Of a stretch of 62,439 nt of DNA, positions 3,712-47,282 are shown in pieces. The notes under the pieces are model-generated. The model saw only the letters and a list, made by a program, of their open reading frames with translations, did no database searches and had not been told where the DNA came from. The position numbers and the translations under genes were made by a program. The DNA is taken from the IMG/VR virus record IMGVR_UViG_3300036801_000157, positions 1-62,439 of that record. One strand, given 5' to 3'. Position 1 is the first letter of the stretch. Every line of letters begins with the position of its first letter. This DNA comes from a virus. Taxonomy: Duplodnaviria > Caudoviricetes.

Positions 3712-4073
3712 TCGACCTGTGGGCGGATCATGCCAACGTGCGCGCCGTCAACGTGATGATGCTGCTTGCCAAGATGCGGCTTGAAGCTGGGAGATCGCCG
3801 GCGCCCTGGTATCGGGCCGCCGGGCAACACCTCGCGCGCCTGCGCCGCGGGCGGGGCAAGAGCAAATGGGCACAACTTGTGCGCGACGAATGCGGGATCG
3901 GCACCAGTCGCGCTTTCGAACTGATCGCGCTCGGGCGAGGCAAGGCTCTCGCGGAGGCCCGCGCGGAGAATTCCGGTAGAGTTAAAAAGTCACGCAGCTG
4001 CAAAGCGTTACCTGGTCCAAGGGGCCCCAGGAAGACGGCAAATCGCCGCTCTGGCACAGATTCCAAGCATTGA
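3708..4073 (+). CDS. DUF3102-like helical protein
   Basis: AAGQHLARL...KWAQLVRDECGIGTSRAFELIAL pattern. Confidence 0.55.
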   Translation: MIDLWADHANVRAVNVMMLLAKMRLEAGRSPAPWYRAAGQHLARLRRGRGKSKWAQLVRDECGIGTSRAFELIALGRGKALAEARAENSGRVKKSRSCKALPGPRGPRKTANRRSGTDSKH

Positions 4074-4111
4074 TTATATTGACGTTTTCCTGTCGCGGAC
4101 GGGGCTCGAAG

Positions 4112-4621
4112 GTGGCCAACGACGAGGTCCAGCTCGCTTTGATCGCCGAGGCCGCGCCGCTCCGGGTGGCCGCCAAGCCATTCGTCGTCTTCGAGATTGC
4201 CGGCGAGCCGAAGGCCTGGGGCCGGCCGGGCGCAACCATTCGTTGGGCTAGTGGTCGACCGTTCATCCACTGGTATGTATCGGCGCCAGAGGCCGCCTAC
4301 AGGACCGCAGTAGCTTGGTGCGCCAAGAGTGCCATGAAGGGCCGAAAGCCCACCAGCGAGCCCGTGGCGCTGCTGGCGCATGCCTTCGTTGGCATTCCTC
4401 CAAGCTGGCATTGGCTCACCAAGCAAAAAGCGCGTTCTGGCGCGCTGTTGCCGACCGGAAAACCAGACCACGACAATTTTCTGAAACTTCTCTGCGATGC
4501 CTTGCGCGGAATTGTTTGGCTCGATGATGCCGCCGTCGTCGATGGCCGATGCATTAAACGATTCAGCGATCGACCAGCACTTAGATGCGAGGTCAGAGAA
4601 TTCACTTCGTCGCTAAAATGA
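4112..4621 (+). CDS. rusA: RusA family Holliday junction resolvase
   Basis: GEPKAWGRP, KPDHDNFLKLLCDAL, VWLDDAAVV motifs; probable GTG start. Confidence 0.9.
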   Translation: MANDEVQLALIAEAAPLRVAAKPFVVFEIAGEPKAWGRPGATIRWASGRPFIHWYVSAPEAAYRTAVAWCAKSAMKGRKPTSEPVALLAHAFVGIPPSWHWLTKQKARSGALLPTGKPDHDNFLKLLCDALRGIVWLDDAAVVDGRCIKRFSDRPALRCEVREFTSSLK

Positions 4622-4653
4622 AAACGGGCCGCGTTTGGATCGCGACCCGCTTC
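4621..4653 (-). terminator. Hairpin terminator closing array 1 (possibly bidirectional with rusA)
   Basis: GCGGGTCGCG-loop-CGCGGCCCGT followed by TTTT on the minus strand. Confidence 0.6.
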
Positions 4654-4660
4654 ATTCATT

Positions 4661-5806
4661 ACTGCCTTGCGTTGCCCAGCCTTTCCGGACCGGACCACGC
4701 CAAGCCTCACCCGATCACATCTCGCCACAACCGGACAGACCGCGCCTGCCGAACCAAGCCTAGCCACGCCATGTCGCATCCCGCCCCACTACGCCATGTC
4801 GCACCCCGCCACGCCTGCCAAGCCTGATCAAGCCTGTTCGAATCGAGTCGAGACATGCCATATCCCCGCCGCGCCTGCCTTCCATGCCAAATTTAACGCT
4901 GCCGAACGGACCTCGCCATATCGCGCCTGCCTTCCATGCCGCGCCCAATTCGACCCAACCACACCGGAACCTGTCGCACCCGACCATGTTTAGCCGAGCC
5001 GCGCCTGCCTGACCCAGCCTCTGCTCGCCGAACCCGGTCTAGGCTAGTGTTGCCACGCCTGCCATACCGACCGGAACTTATCTTGTCGCGCCCAGCCAAT
5101 CCCCGTCCCGTCTCGCCATGCCTGCCACGCCATGCCTTGCCTCACCCGACCGCACCGGGCCGTACCCTGTCCCACCGAACCATGCCGCACCGAACCATGC
5201 CGCGCCTTGCCGGACCCAACCGCGCCTGCCTCGCCACGCCCCGCCTGACCGTATTCAGCCCAGACGAACCTTACCCGACCCGACCACGCGCGCCGCGCCT
5301 GCCTCGCCCTACCTTGCCTCGTTACACCCAACCTTGCCAAACCCAATCCCACCTCGCCATTCCTGCCACGCTTGCCGGGCCTATCCTCGACCGACCTAGC
5401 CTTGTATCGCCAAGCTATATCAAGCCCCGCCTGCCAGACCTCGCCATGCCACGCCGGACCTTGTCTTACCTAGTTCCACCCCACCTCGCCTCGCCACGAT
5501 GCGACGCGCCATACCGCTCCTGCCATGCATGTCCATGCCTCGCCTCACGGCGCCCAGCCGGACCTCACCTCATCGGGACTTGCCCCGCCTGCCTTCCTTG
5601 CCTTGCCATGCCTTATTGCACCCGGCCCAGACACGCCCCATCTCGACTTACCGATCCTGCCATGCCCAGCCCAGCCTCACCTTTCCAGACCATGCCGTGC
5701 CACGCCCCACCTTGACTATCCGTGCAAGACCAAGCCCCGCCTGCCATAGATCACCGCGCCCGCGATTGCGCCGAGCGTTGCGCTGCCAATCCGCACCGTG
5801 CCTGCC
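4661..5806 (-). ncRNA. Array 1: about 15-16 GGCAGG-delimited units of GGY-NN pentamers (putative gapped guide RNAs)
   Basis: On + strand CCTGCC delimiters end at 4750, 4819, 4879, 4931, 5009, 5063, 5126, 5230, 5303, 5367, 5435, 5524, 5593, 5661, 5745, 5806; between them a 5-nt NN-RCC period; ORFs across it are low-complexity shadows. Confidence 0.9.
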
Positions 5807-5860
5807 GAGCTTTTTCCGCTTCATAGATGCGGTGGCCCACGCGAGGAGCGCCTCGCGCCG
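5796..5860 (-). promoter_or_regulatory. Conserved structured leader of array 1
   Basis: 51/65 ungapped identity by hand to 7682-7746; CCGC-loop-GCGG hairpin. Confidence 0.75.
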
Positions 5861-5866
5861 CGGAAT

Positions 5867-6352
5867 TTATGCAGCGAGTCGTTGCTCCAAATCGATCAGT
5901 TCTTGAAGCATCCGCTGCAATAAACCAGACAAACCTGGATGTCTCGAATCGAGCATATGCGTAACATCACGCGCGCGTTCGATCGAACTCTTACAACGCA
6001 TAACTTCAGCCAGCACAATGCGTTCAGCCGCGCTGCGATTGATTGATGTGGCTGTGATCGGAACATGGCCGGCTTCGTTGTCGCGACGATCCGGATTTGA
6101 GACGTAATACGGCGAAACTATTCGCATCGATTCGTGAACGACTGTAACTGTTATGAATCGAATTAGTTCACCAGCCCGATCGAGCCGTTGCTTGTGCGCC
6201 GCCTTTCGGTCATCCCAAATAAATTCTGAATGCAATACATGCCGCGCTGGACGAGCAGCGCGGACGATGTCCTCTCGCTTCAGCACGCCGCCGTTCGCCT
6301 CGCGGATTTGCTCCAGCGCGTCGCGGATTTGATCATCTCTGCGCGATGCCAT
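5867..6352 (-). CDS. Accessory protein of the RAMP/array system (161 aa)
   Basis: Overlaps the RAMP stop codon (TAATG); GVL..EDIVRAAR...LHSEFIWDD.KAA...RL..A.ELIR motif; lies between RAMP gene and array 1. Confidence 0.8.
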   Translation of the reverse strand: MASRRDDQIRDALEQIREANGGVLKREDIVRAARPARHVLHSEFIWDDRKAAHKQRLDRAGELIRFITVTVVHESMRIVSPYYVSNPDRRDNEAGHVPITATSINRSAAERIVLAEVMRCKSSIERARDVTHMLDSRHPGLSGLLQRMLQELIDLEQRLAA

Positions 6353-7242
6353 TATTCAATCCCCACATATTCTGCCTCGCCCTTGCCATCAAGCTTTTCA
6401 AGAATCACTGGGCCTTTCGGCATCGGCCGACGCTTGCCTTTGCGGTCCACCAGTTCATGATCCTCGGCATCGATAAGCTGGCCAAGCATCTCGCGCCGCG
6501 CGACTTCTTCGGAAAACCAAGTCAGTAGTTCTTCGGTGTTTTCATCGAAAAATCCAGGTGATTTGAACGCCTTGTCCTGCGCCGTGCGCGCTTGGGTCTT
6601 GACGATGCGCTTGAAATCAGCATTATTGGATTCGACGACATCGTAAGCGCCGAATGGTCCGCCTTTCTGGCCACGCCAATCGCCGATGCCGACGATCTTG
6701 CCGGCGGCGCCAAAGAGATTCACGACGGTTCGCTCTGTCAGGATGCCTCGGATGTAGCGAAAGGTGATCGTGCCGCACCACTCCGGAAAGATCGGCCGTG
6801 TGCGAACGTCCGGCGTGCGATTCTGGTCAGAATTGCGCACCATTGCGCAATAAATTTCTGGCGTGCCATATAGGTTTACCTGCAATTCTACGATCTTGGT
6901 GAGCCGCTCGATTTTGGCTTTTGCCGTTCCTGGAATGTCGAGCGCGACCGCCGACAATGCGCCGTGAAATGCGCCGGACGGAACGTGAATGAGCGTCTTC
7001 TCTTTCAGATCGCGGTTGACATAAAGCGCGCCTCTGAACTCAGCAGGCGGATCGTGCTTGAGGCTCTGTTCCAGCCCAGCCCGGTTCTGCCTGATGCTTG
7101 GGAACAGCAATTCCCGCCAAGCCTTTGCGGCAAATCTATTCATGATCATCGGAGACGTGCCGAGGAAGTTCATCGTCACTTCGTCGATCTTGATCTCCTG
7201 GATTTCGAGCTGCGCCTCTTCTTTTTTCCTCTTCGGTGCCAT
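6352..7242 (-). CDS. RAMP/Cas7-like RNA-binding protein (putative Vipr-type effector)
   Basis: N-terminal LGTSPMI strand; IHVPSGAFHGAL (cf. RAMP IP.SS.KGAL); Gly-rich loop GIGDWRGQKGGPFG; flanked by arrays; no cas genes in the window. Confidence 0.8.
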   Translation of the reverse strand: MAPKRKKEEAQLEIQEIKIDEVTMNFLGTSPMIMNRFAAKAWRELLFPSIRQNRAGLEQSLKHDPPAEFRGALYVNRDLKEKTLIHVPSGAFHGALSAVALDIPGTAKAKIERLTKIVELQVNLYGTPEIYCAMVRNSDQNRTPDVRTRPIFPEWCGTITFRYIRGILTERTVVNLFGAAGKIVGIGDWRGQKGGPFGAYDVVESNNADFKRIVKTQARTAQDKAFKSPGFFDENTEELLTWFSEEVARREMLGQLIDAEDHELVDRKGKRRPMPKGPVILEKLDGKGEAEYVGIE

Positions 7243-7282
7243 TTGGTGTTGTCCTTGCTAGACATCGGCCGATTTAGCCGCG

Positions 7283-7318
7283 CGGCCACTATTGCCAAAT
7301 AATCCAGCGTTTGACAAG
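7283..7318 (-). promoter_or_regulatory. Putative sigma70-type promoter for the RAMP operon
   Basis: CTTGTCAA-N14-GGCAA-TAGT-GGCCG, same layout as 15625, 28531 and 40921. Confidence 0.6.
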
Positions 7319-7322
7319 CCAC

Positions 7323-7370
7323 AAAAAAAAAGGCCCGCAGCCGGCGCAAGGATAAACCGGCTACGAGCCC
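7323..7370 (-). terminator. Rho-independent terminator downstream of array 2
   Basis: GGGCTCGTAGCCGG...CCGGCTGCGGGCC stem followed by T9. Confidence 0.85.
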
Positions 7371-7426
7371 TGTGGGCCAAATCCGCGACGGGATCGTGCG
7401 GCTTGGCGGCACCTAAAGTGTTAATA

Positions 7427-7690
7427 CCTTCCAGGTCGGCCTGACCGCGCCTGTCCTAGCCTCACGCGCCCCGCCGCACCGAGACTTACCCAGCGTGCCT
7501 CGCCTGCCAAGCCATGCCGAACCGGACTGTACCCAGCAACACCTGACCACAACATATCACGCCGTGACGAACCCCGCCTGCCTCGCCGCGCCGAACCGAT
7601 CTGTACCTTGTCCTGACGTGCCCAGACGTGCCCGGACATACCAAGCCTGCCCTACAATTCCGAGCAAATGGACGTGCCGCGCCGTGCCTA
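7427..7690 (-). ncRNA. Array 2: 3 full GGY-NN units plus leader-proximal part
   Basis: Delimiters end at 7432 (CCTTCC), 7508, 7582, 7651; 5-nt period; leader 7682-7746. Confidence 0.85.
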
Positions 7691-7755
7691 CCGACCGTTT
7701 ACCGCTTCATAGCTGCGGGCGGCCGCGCGAGAAACGTCCCGCGCCACAGCGTGTG

Positions 7756-8340
7756 TCATACGCCGGAATTTCTTGAATCGTCAAGCAGCGCATTGACGCG
7801 CTCTGACGCTTGCACAGTATCGTCGAACTGTTCAACCCCCCATTTGCCAGCGCCGATCAGTTTCACAACATAACTGCCGTGCGTAATTTCGATATCTTTT
7901 TCTGGCAGCACCAACCAAACACGATCGTGAATTCTAATATGAACCAACAAAATTTCATCGGCAGATCGCACATGCAAGCCACGCAACGACATCGCCTTTA
8001 ATTGTTGATAATATGGCGCATCTTTCCACACATCAGGATAATCAGGATCAACCGTGCACGTCACACATTGGACTCCATTGAAAACACCAAGACTTAAAAT
8101 CATGTGACTCAATAATGGAAACCATTCATGGCCGACTTTCGGGCTCATCAGCCAGCCACATGCATAGGTGCGACATATCTGCGGACGCGCTTCGTAAATT
8201 CCGCAGCCACCGCAGCCAGGCCGACAGTGCTCGCACCAAACGCCTGCCGGCTTGGATAATTCGGCAACAAATAATAATCGGCAGCATTCGGAACACTTGC
8301 CGCAGGATCGTCCTGGCGCGATTGGCGGGCCACCGTGCAT
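7756..8340 (-). CDS. Cys-cluster protein (YkgJ/CxxCxxCC-like)
   Basis: RSCGKCSECC, WCEHC, CGIYEARPQICRTYAC; start set at TGATG overlap. Confidence 0.75.
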   Translation of the reverse strand: MHGGPPIAPGRSCGKCSECCRLLFVAELSKPAGVWCEHCRPGCGGCGIYEARPQICRTYACGWLMSPKVGHEWFPLLSHMILSLGVFNGVQCVTCTVDPDYPDVWKDAPYYQQLKAMSLRGLHVRSADEILLVHIRIHDRVWLVLPEKDIEITHGSYVVKLIGAGKWGVEQFDDTVQASERVNALLDDSRNSGV

Positions 8341-15155: not shown

Positions 15156-15611
15156 CTAGCCTACTGCTTCGCCAGTCTCTTCAAGCGTTAGGCTCCATTT
15201 GACCCTGCGGCCGTATTCGTTGATGCTCTGCTGCACGCCAGTCACCATCATCATGAGACGCGGCCGGTAGATCGTGAATGCGCCGACGACGCGCTCTGAG
15301 CCATCAACGACAGGCCGTGATGGCGCGCCACCCACTGTCCGATATACCAGCTCGGCCACACAATCTACAGTGACCTTCATGCCTTGGAACACACCATCGA
15401 ACGCAGGGGCCTCGACATCGCTGCAGGTGATGACGGATTCGTACTTCTTGAATTTATCAACCGCCAGATCGACCAGAAGACCATTCACAGTTCGCCGAGG
15501 TGCCGCCACAGCTTTAATCGGATCGAGCGTCTGATCTAAATTTCTCGCAGAATATAATGGTACGCCATTGGATAAAAGCACCAATAGTGTCTGTTCAGCT
15601 GGGAGACTCAT
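15156..15611 (-). CDS. Putative distal tail protein
   Basis: RRTVNG.L, W.LTLEE motifs; downstream of tape measure; start re-assigned to 15611. Confidence 0.65.
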   Translation of the reverse strand: MSLPAEQTLLVLLSNGVPLYSARNLDQTLDPIKAVAAPRRTVNGLLVDLAVDKFKKYESVITCSDVEAPAFDGVFQGMKVTVDCVAELVYRTVGGAPSRPVVDGSERVVGAFTIYRPRLMMMVTGVQQSINEYGRRVKWSLTLEETGEAVG

Positions 15612-15715: not shown

Positions 15716-15815
15716 CTAGGCATGGCATGGCGAGGCAGGCGTGGTTGGTCTCGGCAGCGTCCGTCTGGGTGCGGTGTACCTAGGCAGAGCGGAGCACGGC
15801 TAGGCTTGGCAGGCA
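15716..15815 (+). ncRNA. Array 3: single-unit GGY-NN mini-array
   Basis: GGCAGG at 15734 and 15808 bracketing 14 pentamers; intergenic, antisense to the tail operon. Confidence 0.8.
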
Positions 15816-38204: not shown

Positions 38205-40919
38205 TCACTGCCCCGTCTGCGATCTTCGCTGCAATGATGTCAACGGCGCCTGCTTCGCACCTCGCGCCTTGCCAGGTGCCTTCGCCTTGGGTGCGGCTTT
38301 TGCCTTCTTCGGCTTCGGAGCTGCCTTAGCCTTCGGAGCCGCTTTCGGCTTCGGACCTTTCTTTGGCTTGGGCCCAGCCTTGGCCTTGCCGCCTCCTTTG
38401 GCACCCTTACCACCACCGCCACCTTTGCCGCCGCCCGATCCCTTGCCTTGGCCTTGACCCTGGCCTTGACCCTGGCCCTTCTGCGGCTTGTCTCCCTTGG
38501 CTGCGGCCTTCGCCTCTTTCGCAGCCTTCGCAGCGTCCGCCTTCGCGGCCTGCGCGTCCGCGCGCGCCTGCTTGGCATCAGCCTTGTCCTTCGCGCTGGC
38601 GTCTTTCGCAGCCGCCTTCTCCTCGGCCTTCTGCGCTTTCGCCTCGGCCTTGGCAGCCTTGTCCGCAGCCTTAGCCTCAGCCTTGGCGGCCTTGGCCTCC
38701 GCACGCGCCTGCTTGGCCTCGTCTTGAGCGTTTTGCTTTTGGTTCGCCTTCAAATCCTTGTCAGCCGCCTTGGCCTCGGCGGCAGCCGCCTTCGCCTCGG
38801 CCTTGTCCGCCCGATCCTTGGCGGCCGCAGCCTGCTTGTCGGCCTTCGCCTGCGCGGCCGTCTTGTTCGCCTCAGCCTTCGCGGCCTCCTTTGCAGCGGC
38901 CGCCTCGGCCTTTGCCTTGTTGGCCTCGTCACGCGCCGCCTTGGCCGCGTCCTTGTCCGCCTGCTTGGCGTCTTTCGCCGCCGCCTTGGCCTCAGCCGCC
39001 TTGGCCTTTTCCTCAGCCGCGTCGGCCTTGTCTTGCGCCCTGTCCGCTTCCTTGTCGGCCTTCGCCTGCGCCTTTTCCGCTGCAGTTGCCTCTTTCGCCT
39101 TGCCTGCCTCGGCCTTCGCAGCCTCCTTTGCCGCAGCCGCCTCGGCCTTTGCCTTGTCAGGCTCTTTCGTAGGCTTCTCGGCGGCCTTGCCCTTCTCAGG
39201 TGTCTTCTCAGCCGACTTATCAGGCTTCTTGGATTTCTCGGGCTTACTGGCACCACCACCGGGAGACGAGGCAAACAGGCCAGCGGGCCCGTGATTCGGA
39301 TTGAAGTCGGCAACGACGCCACGGGCGTCGCCCGCACCCTTGCCACCTGGGAACGTGCTCTTGCGCATGTTCGGCGGAAGCTGCCCAGTCTGCCCTGGCT
39401 GCGGCGGTGGCGGCCCGCCAGGCATGCCACCAGGCCCGGGTGGCGCTACCGGCGGCGGCGCATTCGGATCGAACGGCGCGGTATGCTGGCCAGGGCCAAA
39501 CAGCGTTCCAACCGGCGCCGGCTGCGGCGTGTTCTGTTCCTCGATCGTGTCGCCTTCCATGGCCGCGTCGTCGAGCGCCTTCTCAAAGCCAGGATAAACG
39601 CCGTCCTCGATCAACTGATTGGCACGCCCATTGGCCAATGCCACCGGCGGTAATTGCGCGGCATTCACGTCGATCTGGTACGCCTGCGCTTTCTTGAGCG
39701 CGATGTCGGCCTTGTCGCCATCCGACAATTGCCACAGCGAATTCCATTCGTACCAGACCTCGGGCGGACGCGTACCGAGCGCCGAGCGGATCAGCACCTC
39801 GTCGAGCGCCGTCATCGCAGGAGTCAACGTAACCGTCTGCTCCGAGGACAGCCGATCGTAATAGTTCCTGAAATCAGCCTCTCCAGTCACATTCAATCCG
39901 CGATGCGGCAATCCGAGAAATCTGCCAGCCGGAATATCCACCGCGCCGGAAGCGATCTGTAAATATGTCGAAAGCACCTGTGGCGCAGCCGTTAGATTGG
40001 CCTCGACGCGCTGCCATTTCTCGTTGCCATCGATCAGCACTGTGTTGATGACGCTCTTGGCGGCATTCGCGGCCTGGAAGCGAGCGATCATCTTGCGCTC
40101 GCCTTCCTTGGTCGACAGAATGCTCTTCAATTCAGGAACGCTGATGATGTCGACCTTCATTTCGGCTACCAGCGTCGCCAGCGAGCCGGAAACCAGCGAG
40201 CACATTTTCACAGCATCGCTCACCGCTTGCAGAACGCTGTCGCCCCAGACCGTGTTTAATAATTGATCGGCAGTGTCCATGCCGATCAGCTTGATCACCC
40301 GCGAAGGGTGCAGCCTCACCTGCGTCTTGGAAAAATTCGGATCAGATGGATCGTTGGTCTGGAATGATCTATCGACCGGACGGTTCTGCGCTTCGTAATA
40401 TTCAGGCTGCCCGTAATATCTCGACGAAATGTCGTAAATAACCGGTCCCATGCTGATCTGATTGCGCGAGACGACGTGCAAGAACTTCAGCGAATCCTTG
40501 GTGACATCATCGTAATTAAGCTCCTCCTCGGGATCGCCGGCATCGACTCCGATGATGATCGCCGAGCCGCCATAAAGCCGCGCCTTGATCAGAGCTTGCT
40601 GAACCTTCTTCTGTAACAATAATTTCTTTTCGGTCGCCTCCAGCAATTGAATCTGATCCGGATCGGCCTGCCAATTCCGCCATTGTCGCGTCATGTCGAA
40701 AGCGGGAACATCAACCGCTTTCCTACTAATCCAATCGCCGCGATAACTAAATTCCAATTCCTGCGTCGTCAATAATGCGAATGTGTAGGCCTGCGACATG
40801 AATTTGTCGCGGCCAGGAACGCCAAGACCAGCGAGCAAATTAATATAACCGTCAGACCACCGGACGGCCTCCGTCGGCGGCATGCTTACAACATTGTCTT
40901 GCGCATCAGTCATGATCAC
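38205..40919 (-). CDS. Portal protein (DUF1073 type) with long Lys/Ala-rich C-terminal tail
   Basis: Y..DW..RK.VD.PA.DM.R.W, ARLYGGS, HPSRV, IP..R.LG, GEAD..NYYD, W..LW. Confidence 0.9.
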   Translation of the reverse strand: MIMTDAQDNVVSMPPTEAVRWSDGYINLLAGLGVPGRDKFMSQAYTFALLTTQELEFSYRGDWISRKAVDVPAFDMTRQWRNWQADPDQIQLLEATEKKLLLQKKVQQALIKARLYGGSAIIIGVDAGDPEEELNYDDVTKDSLKFLHVVSRNQISMGPVIYDISSRYYGQPEYYEAQNRPVDRSFQTNDPSDPNFSKTQVRLHPSRVIKLIGMDTADQLLNTVWGDSVLQAVSDAVKMCSLVSGSLATLVAEMKVDIISVPELKSILSTKEGERKMIARFQAANAAKSVINTVLIDGNEKWQRVEANLTAAPQVLSTYLQIASGAVDIPAGRFLGLPHRGLNVTGEADFRNYYDRLSSEQTVTLTPAMTALDEVLIRSALGTRPPEVWYEWNSLWQLSDGDKADIALKKAQAYQIDVNAAQLPPVALANGRANQLIEDGVYPGFEKALDDAAMEGDTIEEQNTPQPAPVGTLFGPGQHTAPFDPNAPPPVAPPGPGGMPGGPPPPQPGQTGQLPPNMRKSTFPGGKGAGDARGVVADFNPNHGPAGLFASSPGGGASKPEKSKKPDKSAEKTPEKGKAAEKPTKEPDKAKAEAAAAKEAAKAEAGKAKEATAAEKAQAKADKEADRAQDKADAAEEKAKAAEAKAAAKDAKQADKDAAKAARDEANKAKAEAAAAKEAAKAEANKTAAQAKADKQAAAAKDRADKAEAKAAAAEAKAADKDLKANQKQNAQDEAKQARAEAKAAKAEAKAADKAAKAEAKAQKAEEKAAAKDASAKDKADAKQARADAQAAKADAAKAAKEAKAAAKGDKPQKGQGQGQGQGQGKGSGGGKGGGGGKGAKGGGKAKAGPKPKKGPKPKAAPKAKAAPKPKKAKAAPKAKAPGKARGAKQAPLTSLQRRSQTGQ

Positions 40920-41016: not shown

Positions 41017-41366
41017 GGCACGGTTCGGACAGGCGAGAACGAGGCGCGGCCAGACAGCGCTCGATAATCTTTGGCAGGAGCGGCTAGACCGGACGGGGCG
41101 AGGCTGGGCATGGCGCGTTCGGGCAAAGCGCAGCGTGGCAAGGCAGGCGTGGTTGGGTTGGACATGGTGCGGCATGGACTGGCGGGGTCAGGCGGGGCTT
41201 GGCCTGGCAGGCCAGGCACGTCGGGCGCAGCGAGTCTAGTGCAGGCAAGGCACGGCGCGGCGAGGCATGTCGCGGCAGGGATTGGCATGGCAGGCGCGGT
41301 CCGGTGCGGCTGAGCAGGACGTGGCTGGGCGCGGTGCGGATTTGCCCGGCAACGCAAGGCCGGCAG
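41017..41366 (+). ncRNA. Array 4: 4 full GGY-NN units plus leader-proximal part
   Basis: GGCAGG at 41073, 41142, 41206, 41289, final GGCAG 41362; leader 40956-41024 resembles leaders of arrays 1 and 2. Confidence 0.85.
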
Positions 41367-47095: not shown

Positions 47096-47282
47096 CCAAT
47101 TTGATTAAATTCTTCAAGCCGAACCGCACCCACCCGGTCCGCCGCAAGCCCGTCCCTTCCTGACCTCACTTCTCCGATCTGCCGCACGCCACACCGCCCC
47201 ACACCATCCCATCACTCAGCCCCATATTGCGTAGGCGATGATCATTGCTATCACCACCAGAAACGCCAACAGAAGCCAACTG

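Follow-up and report, generated by a model that had tools for sequence, protein, structure and literature searches.

VIPR (Viral Interference Programmable Repeat) was described in 2026, with experiments that rest on two examples, one enterobacterial and one pseudomonad (bioRxiv 10.64898/2026.04.26.720920). According to the text of that preprint, its vrRNAs consist of 9–16 GGY/NN pentamers, with one Vipr protomer per GGY, and the NN bases pair with DNA in such a way that every third target base, usually the wobble base, is skipped (10.64898/2026.04.26.720920). The targets are described there as competing phages and satellites; natural targets were called when at least 80% of the NN bases matched, and no self match passed that threshold (10.64898/2026.04.26.720920). 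Phage SUSP1 and a Pseudomonas fulva prophage are given as type II examples (10.64898/2026.04.26.720920). Published VIPR loci number 667; VIPR types run from I to VII, and accessory genes from vap1 to vap6. The text of another preprint describes solo vrRNAs that aim at the vipr genes and vrRNAs of relatives, and for which the self-match is lower than the non-self match (10.64898/2026.10.15.759431). Guides against VIPR systems are therefore already reported, and that idea itself is not new.

The stretch of DNA analysed here, called the window, is an entire virus record of 62,439 bases. In common with the VIPR loci described in the text of the first preprint, it has a Vipr protein of the RAMP family encoded next to a small accessory gene, guides built of GGY/NN pentamers both upstream and downstream of these genes (9–16 pentamers in the published vrRNAs, up to 20 here), a one-base skip that falls on the wobble position of codons, apparent targets in competing phages, and targeting of either DNA strand with no PAM reported. 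In type II VIPR, as described there, each repeat tract has a conserved 3′ tail with a pseudoknot, whereas the units in the window have no such tail and only the 4-base GGCA; because this tail is lacking, the locus was not filed under type II. Its arrays fit the “staggered arrays” of the legend to figure S18, which the paper itself calls unconfirmed by RNA sequencing (10.64898/2026.04.26.720920). The Vipr protein has 296 aa here vs. about 200 aa in SUSP1, and the window also has extra solo arrays, which lie far away from vipr among the structural genes and run on the opposite strand.

Vipr and its accessory gene

The window is a soil phage contig with siphovirus-like genes for the tape measure, major tail protein, major head protein, portal, large terminase, and endolysin. 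Its VIPR cassette spans 3.1 kb and lies between the RusA gene (4070–4621, plus strand; Pfam PF05866) and a gene of 264 aa. In the relative G002 only ~100 bases separate RusA from the 264-aa gene; because the two genes lie that close together there, the segment from 4621 to 7756, which holds array A, vap, vipr, and array B, is an insertion relative to G002. Neither Vipr nor Vap was found in five relatives, in a search whose positive control, the window itself, worked.

The 296-aa gene (6352–7242, minus strand) was assigned by a profile hit and by its predicted fold. A profile of 32 homologs of the protein matched PDB entry 36pp_D, “SUSP1 Vipr protein,” with an E value of 1.5e-7, and nothing else scored below 0.4; in a single-sequence search the match to SUSP1 Vipr had an E value of 0.031. 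The sequence match is confined to residues 148–199 of the 296-aa protein, within which R149 and G185-x-G187-D188-W189-R190 align with R138 and D177-W178-R179 of SUSP1, which the text of the structural preprint identifies as residues that contact GGY (bioRxiv 10.64898/2026.04.26.720927). The thumb arginine and the GxGDWR loop are invariant or near-invariant across the family of the 296-aa protein. Its AlphaFold model had a pLDDT of 76.4 and gave 31 PDB matches at E ≤ 0.001; among the matches listed were CRISPR RAMPs (Cas7, Csm3, Cmr, and Cas6 proteins). From the profile match and the modeled fold we identify the gene as vipr. Among cultured phages the protein matched only five Gordonia phage records, with 27–31% identity, and the 161-aa protein encoded next to it had no match.

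The gene for the 161-aa protein (5867–6352, minus strand) has a start codon that shares one base with the vipr stop codon. The protein belongs to no Pfam family and matches phrog_15946 with an E value of 1.6e-9. Because 73 of 80 Vipr loci from IMG/VR have a relative of this gene on the same strand as vipr, we take the gene to be the accessory gene of the clade and refer to it as vap. The model of Vap had a mean pLDDT of 85.9 and no confident known fold: Foldseek gave no match at E ≤ 0.001, with winged-helix regulators among the weak rows, and VIA-align aligned the model at its C-terminal helical hairpin only (Z up to 9.0), which is a common arrangement. The family is thinly sampled, with three other proteins among 5.8 billion, the closest of them 71% identical.

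Repeat arrays and the unit at 5662–5745

Array A lies downstream of vap (4667–5806, minus strand) and is a 1.1-kb non-coding tract, rich in C and strictly periodic at 5 bases, located between the RusA gene and the minus-strand gene block. Its pentamers have the form NN-[G/A/T]-C-C and are grouped into ~17 units of 8–20 pentamers, each unit ending in TGCC. The third base of the pentamer is G, A, or T on the plus strand, and the Y of the repeat is therefore mostly C on the RNA. The closing 4-mer (GGCA on the RNA strand) moves the register by one base per unit; only this TGCC separates abutting units, with no conserved tail between them and no conserved spacer of ~40 nt. Open reading frames within the array (for example 4936–5715, plus strand) were discounted: a 5-base period does not suit coding sequence, and such frames can be put down to the C-richness of the DNA.

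Array B (7442–7651, minus strand) has the same pentamer pattern upstream of vipr, and next to it on the minus strand is a terminator-like hairpin with a T-run at 7350–7326. The order along the RNA strand (minus) is thus array B, the terminator-like hairpin, a promoter-like site, vipr, vap, and array A. Two further arrays are oriented opposite to A and B, with plus as the RNA strand: solo guide C (15734–15807), which has 14 units, and solo array D (41073–41357), which has 4–5 units and lies immediately upstream of the portal gene. Together the four arrays contain 20 units of 10–20 pentamers, in which CC (GG in the RNA) recurs at constant positions. A candidate fifth pentamer tract at 47116–47210 gave no significant target in the window, G002, or G004. 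The array pattern was found in at least 125 IMG/VR stretches. No Rfam family reached its gathering score anywhere in the window, and Tandem Repeats Finder picked up fragments of the arrays only. A look-up of sequencing runs placed the stretch in one DNA run, probably that of the source sample, with no RNA run listed.

The unit of interest occupies 5662–5745 on the minus strand; among the well-formed guides it is the one nearest to vap on the transcriptionally downstream side. Positions 5662–5741 parse as 16 pentamers (ATGCC CAGCC CAGCC TCACC TTTCC AGACC ATGCC GTGCC ACGCC CCACC TTGAC TATCC GTGCA AGACC AAGCC CCGCC), and TGCC at 5742–5745 closes the unit, so that the RNA strand reads GGCA followed by 16 GGYNN repeats. 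The CC anchor is retained in 14 of the 16 pentamers, which is among the highest fractions in array A. By its pentamer parse and NN series, the unit is to be regarded as a guide of a phage-borne VIPR system.

Resemblance of the guide to the resident vap gene

A first-pass annotation had read a series of dinucleotides from this unit and matched it to the resident vap; recomputation gave the identical series. At 6139–6092 on the minus strand (VHESMRIVSPYYVSNP) the gene agrees with the guide in 9 of 16 dinucleotides and 24 of 32 bases, all at codon positions 1 and 2, so that the site is in frame and the skipped base is the wobble position. Two of the mismatches are synonymous, as had been claimed: Arg CGA vs. 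AG. and Ser TCA vs. AG. The peptide I-H-Q-S-L-R-I-V-T-P-F-Y-V-S-N-P that accompanied the claim fared less well, in that it names one residue per dinucleotide where two are possible and so flatters the likeness; when every compatible residue was allowed, 11 of the 16 positions fit the resident protein.

The second-best site for the guide in the whole window, on both strands, scored 20/32. None of 3000 order-shuffled guides scored 24 at any site in the window (six shuffles came closest, with 23), and with zero or two skipped bases the best score of the guide itself was only 19. Correction for the 20 guides leaves a probability of roughly p < 0.01, before the in-frame position and the neighboring location of the gene are counted. 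When guides of at least 12 units, 285 foreign ones among them, were scored on the vipr-vap region, this guide gave the maximum, 0.75, vs. a 99th percentile of 0.67. Across the 20 units of the window, a skip of one base alone produced outliers: 2 of the 20 guides had scores reached by 0 of 200 shuffles, whereas the lowest p was 0.385 with no skip and 0.035 with a skip of two. The frame was checked for six guides (4667, 5662, 7509, 7583, 15807, and 41141) at their sites in the resident or in relatives, and all were wobble-aligned. We conclude that the likeness of the guide to the resident vap is real and specific to the vap gene family.

Such near-matches are not a general property of these loci. 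In 46 vap loci, 4 of 228 guides matched their own vap at p ≤ 0.01, one of them (in L143) wobble-aligned, and self near-matches were not enriched in other loci (6 of 313 guides at p ≤ 0.01).

Vap alleles in other loci

The first-pass annotation had set, as a check, the search for a homologous accessory gene that would match the guide perfectly. Perfect gapped matches to the guide numbered zero in collections of viral, metagenome, and genome contigs, and when homologous vap alleles were collected and scanned with mismatches allowed, none exceeded the 24/32 of the resident. Across ~160 loci with relatives of vap or vipr, 24/32 was the best score of this guide. Foreign alleles tied with the resident at that score in L126/L247 (IHKSMKIKAPFYVRDP) and L154 (VHHSHKVVAPYYVRDP), at the homologous in-frame site; the same site scored 22 in L256, 21 in L257–L259, and 20 in L246 and L248. 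Among 80 Vipr loci, 7 of the 10 best matches of the guide fell on it. For P0002, the closest known Vap (71% identical, and known as protein only), a score derived by hand from the peptide could be at most 22/32; the 4,780-base contig that encodes it also encodes P0006, a Vipr 85% identical to the resident one. The nearest vap for which DNA was available in the comparison is 54% identical. An all-against-all scan of 857 called guides over the collected loci gave matches at chance level only.

Guide and resident differ at eight bases, and there foreign alleles agree with the guide in 42 of 96 cases, or 38 of 80 when two doubtful rows are removed, against a chance expectation of at most one third. 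Jointly, the resident, L126, and L154 cover 30 of the 32 guide bases. Judged from these alleles, the guide looks like an unsampled member of the vap allele family, or its consensus, and not like a copy of the resident. By the measure used for anti-VIPR guides, at least 80% NN match to a VIPR gene of another element and a lower match to self, the best foreign vap stood at 75%, equal to the resident, whose own 75% lies just below the 80% cut-off of the VIPR papers.

Guides that match flanking genes and vipr

For four units (5662–5741, 7583–7647, 15807–15738, and 41141–41077) the best match in the window fell in the gene that adjoins their own array. Guide 4667–4746 (minus strand), the RusA-proximal guide of array A, scored 29/32 on the 3′ end of RusA in the relatives G002 and G003 and at most 18/32 in the resident. 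The 29/32 site consists of the last 14 codons and the stop codon of RusA, and the match is antisense and wobble-aligned; in G004 the best score of this guide in a genome scan was 26/32. A second unit of array A, at 5436–5520, scored 23/34 on the resident RusA with a local p of 0.006; relatives gave 16/34, and this candidate was set aside as unsupported. In array B, the 13-unit guide 7583–7647 (minus strand) matched the resident 264-aa gene in frame at 7965–7927 (SADEILLVHIRIH) with 21/26, a score reached by 3 of 3000 shuffles; relatives gave 20/26, which is below the 21/26 (81%) of its own neighbor gene. The other array B guide directed at this gene, 7509–7578, had a best score of 21/28 in relatives. 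Solo guide C (15807–15738) scored 19/28, in frame, on the adjacent 190-aa gene at 15569–15528 vs. 22/28 and 21/28 in relatives.

For the terminal guide of array D, 41141–41077, the site in the resident portal gene (40711–40749, plus strand) is on the template strand and wobble-aligned. The resident scored only 20/26; among 40 portal loci, three scored 25/26, three scored 24/26, and 25 scored at least 22/26, whereas the other 15, several of which have no N-terminal part, scored 16–19. The portal protein of L206 is identical to the resident at 441 of 470 residues, the sensitive site is present in it, and no array lies upstream. At this site the resident differs from L206 by two changes of Ala GCG to Ser AGT and by one switch of Arg CGC to AGG. 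Changes at codon positions 1 and 2 number 5 in the 13 codons of the site vs. 60 in the 470 codons overall; this enrichment of “escape” changes is only suggestive, as the neighboring stretch varies even more.

The full set of 20 guides was scanned, with no prior selection, over G002 and G004 (estimated complete, 158 kb). Five reached p ≤ 0.02, all of them flank-directed (4667–4746, 7509–7578, 7583–7647, 15807–15738, and 41141–41077), and the portal guide scored 24/26 and 25/26. As expected, the vap-directed guide had no match in these two relatives. Perfect gapped patterns of guides 7583–7647, 41141–41077, and 15807–15738 gave no matches in viral contigs; since the portal guide nevertheless has targets at 25/26, scans for exact matches miss real targets. 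At the level of sequence, then, the sister guides match the flanking genes of relatives better than the resident copies for the portal, the end of RusA, and guide C.

When 296 distinct guides drawn from vap and vipr loci were scanned all against all, a guide in L246 proved to match a conserved VRNSD coding site of vipr. It scored 21/22 in L247/L126, 20/22 in eight further vipr loci, and 19/22 in two, whereas its score was only 16/22 on its own vipr and also on that of the window. The match is antisense and wobble-aligned, and the spared vipr alleles differ by Ser and Arg codon-family switches. The Vipr protein of L246 is 59% identical to the resident one. By base matching, the L246 guide thus qualifies as an anti-VIPR guide, with foreign vipr as its predicted target.

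Discussion

With some reserve, we favor the reading that guide 5662–5745 acts on rival relatives that also carry VIPR, silencing their vap gene in co-infection or superinfection, and spares its owner. The unit would be transcribed on the minus strand together with vipr and vap and then processed; each GGY would be bound by one Vipr protomer, and the 16 NN dinucleotides thus displayed would pair with DNA in a two-on, one-off register. The code of the unit corresponds to a single in-frame, wobble-aligned site of the vap family, and binding there would silence the rival vap. The resident gene would escape by its eight mismatched bases, a 75% match presumably being too low for binding, and two of these mismatches are six-fold codon-family switches that leave the protein unchanged. 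A sensitive vap allele should then exist among relatives.

Of the original proposal, that the unit is a guide aimed at a homolog of the accessory gene, a good part stands: the unit has the form of a real gapped-code guide, the 161-aa gene is the accessory gene, and the family has one in-frame site for it; no better allele was found among those sampled. The proposed setting, a conflict between related phages, fits the sister guides and the vipr guide of L246, whereas for the vap guide itself foreign alleles only tie with the resident at 24/32.

Three other readings of the resemblance were weighed against silencing of a rival vap. That guide and gene resemble each other by chance is hardly credible: this is one guide-target pair at 75%, and the author of the first-pass annotation was free to pick spacing and strand, but no shuffled guide of the 3000 reached the score, the matched site is in frame within the neighboring gene, and independent homologs are matched at the same site. 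Self-regulation, in which the guide would bind the resident vap weakly despite the eight mismatches and so tune vap (or vipr-vap) or act as a brake on the system, seems to us distinctly unlikely. It would account for the resident being tied for the best known match, which a local origin of the guide predicts equally, and the 75% match is close to the 80% cut-off of the papers. There are also two possible parallels, the vap-proximal guide of L143/L180, which matches its own vap in frame with 20/26, and guide 7583–7647 with its 81% on its own neighboring gene. The L143 guide is, however, the only wobble-aligned case among the 228 guides of the other 46 vap loci, and the published sets, as far as the texts of the preprints describe them, contain no self match of at least 80%, self-sparing being described as the rule. 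Moreover, foreign alleles that are 46–54% identical in protein equal the resident in score and do so at complementary positions, which would be unexpected for a guide tuned to the resident.

The remaining reading is one of origin: guides would arise from, or co-evolve with, the sequence that flanks their array, so that the likeness to vap reflects ancestry and the unit may be decaying. In this genome, each guide with an identified target or near-target does point at a gene flanking its own array, and in other loci high-scoring self near-matches lay within 400 bases in 7 of 16 cases (two of the 16 being duplicate records) vs. 29 of 253 low scorers. Against decay, the unit retains 14 of its 16 CC anchors; and because the sister flank-directed guides have near-perfect, apparently live targets in relatives, adjacency does not imply decay. 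Nor is a guide-making mechanism known for VIPR. We regard an origin of this kind as an unlikely explanation of the resemblance, and retain the silencing of a rival vap as the preferred one.

The position of the guides may have a meaning of its own. Each guide that has a target or near-target adjoins a resident, mismatched copy of the gene that it matches in relatives; the pairs are the RusA-proximal guide and RusA, the vap-proximal guide and vap, the array B guides and the 264-aa gene, solo guide C and the 190-aa gene, and the terminal guide of array D and the portal gene. Relatives with sensitive alleles are without the arrays: in L206 the portal gene has no array upstream of it, and G002 is without the VIPR cassette. 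Immune and sensitive alleles differ repeatedly by six-fold codon-family switches (Arg CGN/AGR, Ser TCN/AGY, and Leu CTN/TTR), and these switches are the only synonymous changes by which a gene can evade a guide that ignores the wobble base. By analogy with free-standing homing endonucleases, vrRNA arrays could be selfish linkage blocks of a weapon plus an immune allele, an idea that is possible but that we hold to be doubtful. Linkage of array and immune allele would keep recombinants from attacking themselves, and binding at the empty site of a rival might promote the copying of both into that rival; a vap-directed guide would be the same logic turned on VIPR itself. Guides that lie beside an immune copy of their own target were not found in the main text of two of the VIPR preprints, and this adjacency is apparently a new feature.

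The locus provides a natural example of tail-less, register-shifted arrays whose guide-target pairs are open to checking in public contigs (96% and 91% in relatives). It gives evidence that VIPR-against-VIPR targeting reaches another clade and probably the accessory gene. If the adjacency rule proves general, it would bear on how guides stay safe for their owner, and perhaps on how they spread. The natural mismatched pairs, with 75–81% to self and 91–96% to rivals, could be used to gauge the mismatch tolerance of Vipr.

Comparison with known systems

In the localized marker exclusion of T-even phages, a free-standing homing endonuclease is encoded next to a resistant version of its target gene and attacks that gene in relatives without the weapon; target and insertion point are at most a few hundred bases apart. 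VIPR differs from these endonucleases in being described as a binder and silencer and not as a nuclease, and it is not known to cause gene conversion.

With the SUSP1-like solo vrRNAs, as described in the text of the preprint, the window has in common that the VIPR genes of a rival are the apparent aim and that targets are wobble-aligned (10.64898/2026.10.15.759431). Those vrRNAs target vipr and other vrRNAs, and their carriers are mostly without vipr-vap (10.64898/2026.10.15.759431), whereas the guide in the window belongs to a VIPR-positive carrier and has its site in vap, with no sensitive vap allele among the sampled loci.

The backbones of Class 1 CRISPR-Cas systems (Cas7, Csm3, and Cmr4) appear, from the modeled structure, to have the RAMP fold of the guide-binding protein in common with Vipr, and the texts of the VIPR preprints describe for both a thumb element that periodically interrupts the guide-target duplex. 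Unlike Class 1 CRISPR-Cas, the locus has no CRISPR repeats and no cas1 or cas2. The periodicity differs as well, with five guide bases per three target bases in VIPR vs. 6 per 6 in Class 1 CRISPR-Cas.

Position of the VIPR cassette and the guides at its ends

The whole 3.1-kb VIPR cassette (array A, vap, vipr, and array B) occupies 4621-7756, between RusA and a 264-aa gene. In the relative G002 (locus L327, 1432-2792), the corresponding comparison showed that RusA and the 264-aa gene are convergent and lie approximately 100 bases apart. The guides at the two ends of the cassette are directed toward these two flanking genes. The guide at 7583-7647 matched its own adjoining gene at 7927-7965 at 21/26 bases (80.8%), and its score in the sampled relatives was slightly lower, at 20/26. 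The VIPR papers report no self hits at a threshold of 80% (bioRxiv 10.64898/2026.04.26.720920), a value that this self-match just exceeds; the phage may simply tolerate it, or it may reflect true self-regulation.

Codon-family switches and divergence of vap

Where a guide and a spared allele specify the same protein and disagree in sequence, the disagreements were switches between the two codon families of an amino acid with six codons: CGN and AGR for Arg, TCN and AGY for Ser, and CTN and TTR for Leu. Such switches were found at 6092-6139, 7927-7965, 15528-15569, and 40711-40749 of the window, and at about 2890-2919 of L246, a VIPR locus of the same clade. By hand count of four guide-resident pairs, they accounted for 7 of the 22 mismatched codons. 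A switch of this kind is the sole synonymous escape from a guide that skips the wobble base; deep divergence could give rise to such switches as well.

The closest relative is a 4,780-base contig whose Vipr (P0006) is 85% identical to that of the window and whose vap protein (P0002) is only 71% identical. The accessory gene diverges more rapidly than the gene for the guide-binding protein, a pattern that attack on vap by the guides of rivals might be expected to produce.

Solo arrays and other features of the contig

The solo arrays at 15734-15807 and 41073-41357 lie within the block of structural genes, with the GGY strand opposite to that of the genes around them, so that their expression would require either dedicated promoters or antisense transcription. 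At 47116-47210 (+ strand) there is a fifth tract, made up of 19 pentamers that have CC anchors and lack the TGCC delimiter; scanning the window and the relatives' genomes G002 and G004 gave no significant target for it. It could be a guide that has degenerated or is constructed in another way, or no more than C-rich DNA.

The contig's left end carries a 251-aa ORF (613-1368, + strand) that contains about eight tandem AT-hook-like PKRRGRPP motifs; no family match to it was found in Pfam or PHROGs.

Guides in other VIPR loci

The L246 guide at 2372-2436, just upstream of vipr, matched position 1197 of another locus, L249, at 25/26 bases, approximately 1.3 kb upstream of the L249 vipr, whereas the best match in its own locus was only 16/26. 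It is probably another rival-directed guide. In L143 and L180, which are one contig present as two records, the vap-proximal guide at 4494-4558 matched its own vap in frame at 4238 (DDNRTVYNPLSEI; 20/26, 0/100 shuffles). This is a second locus in which a vap-proximal guide matches its own vap; the vap site differs from that in the window.
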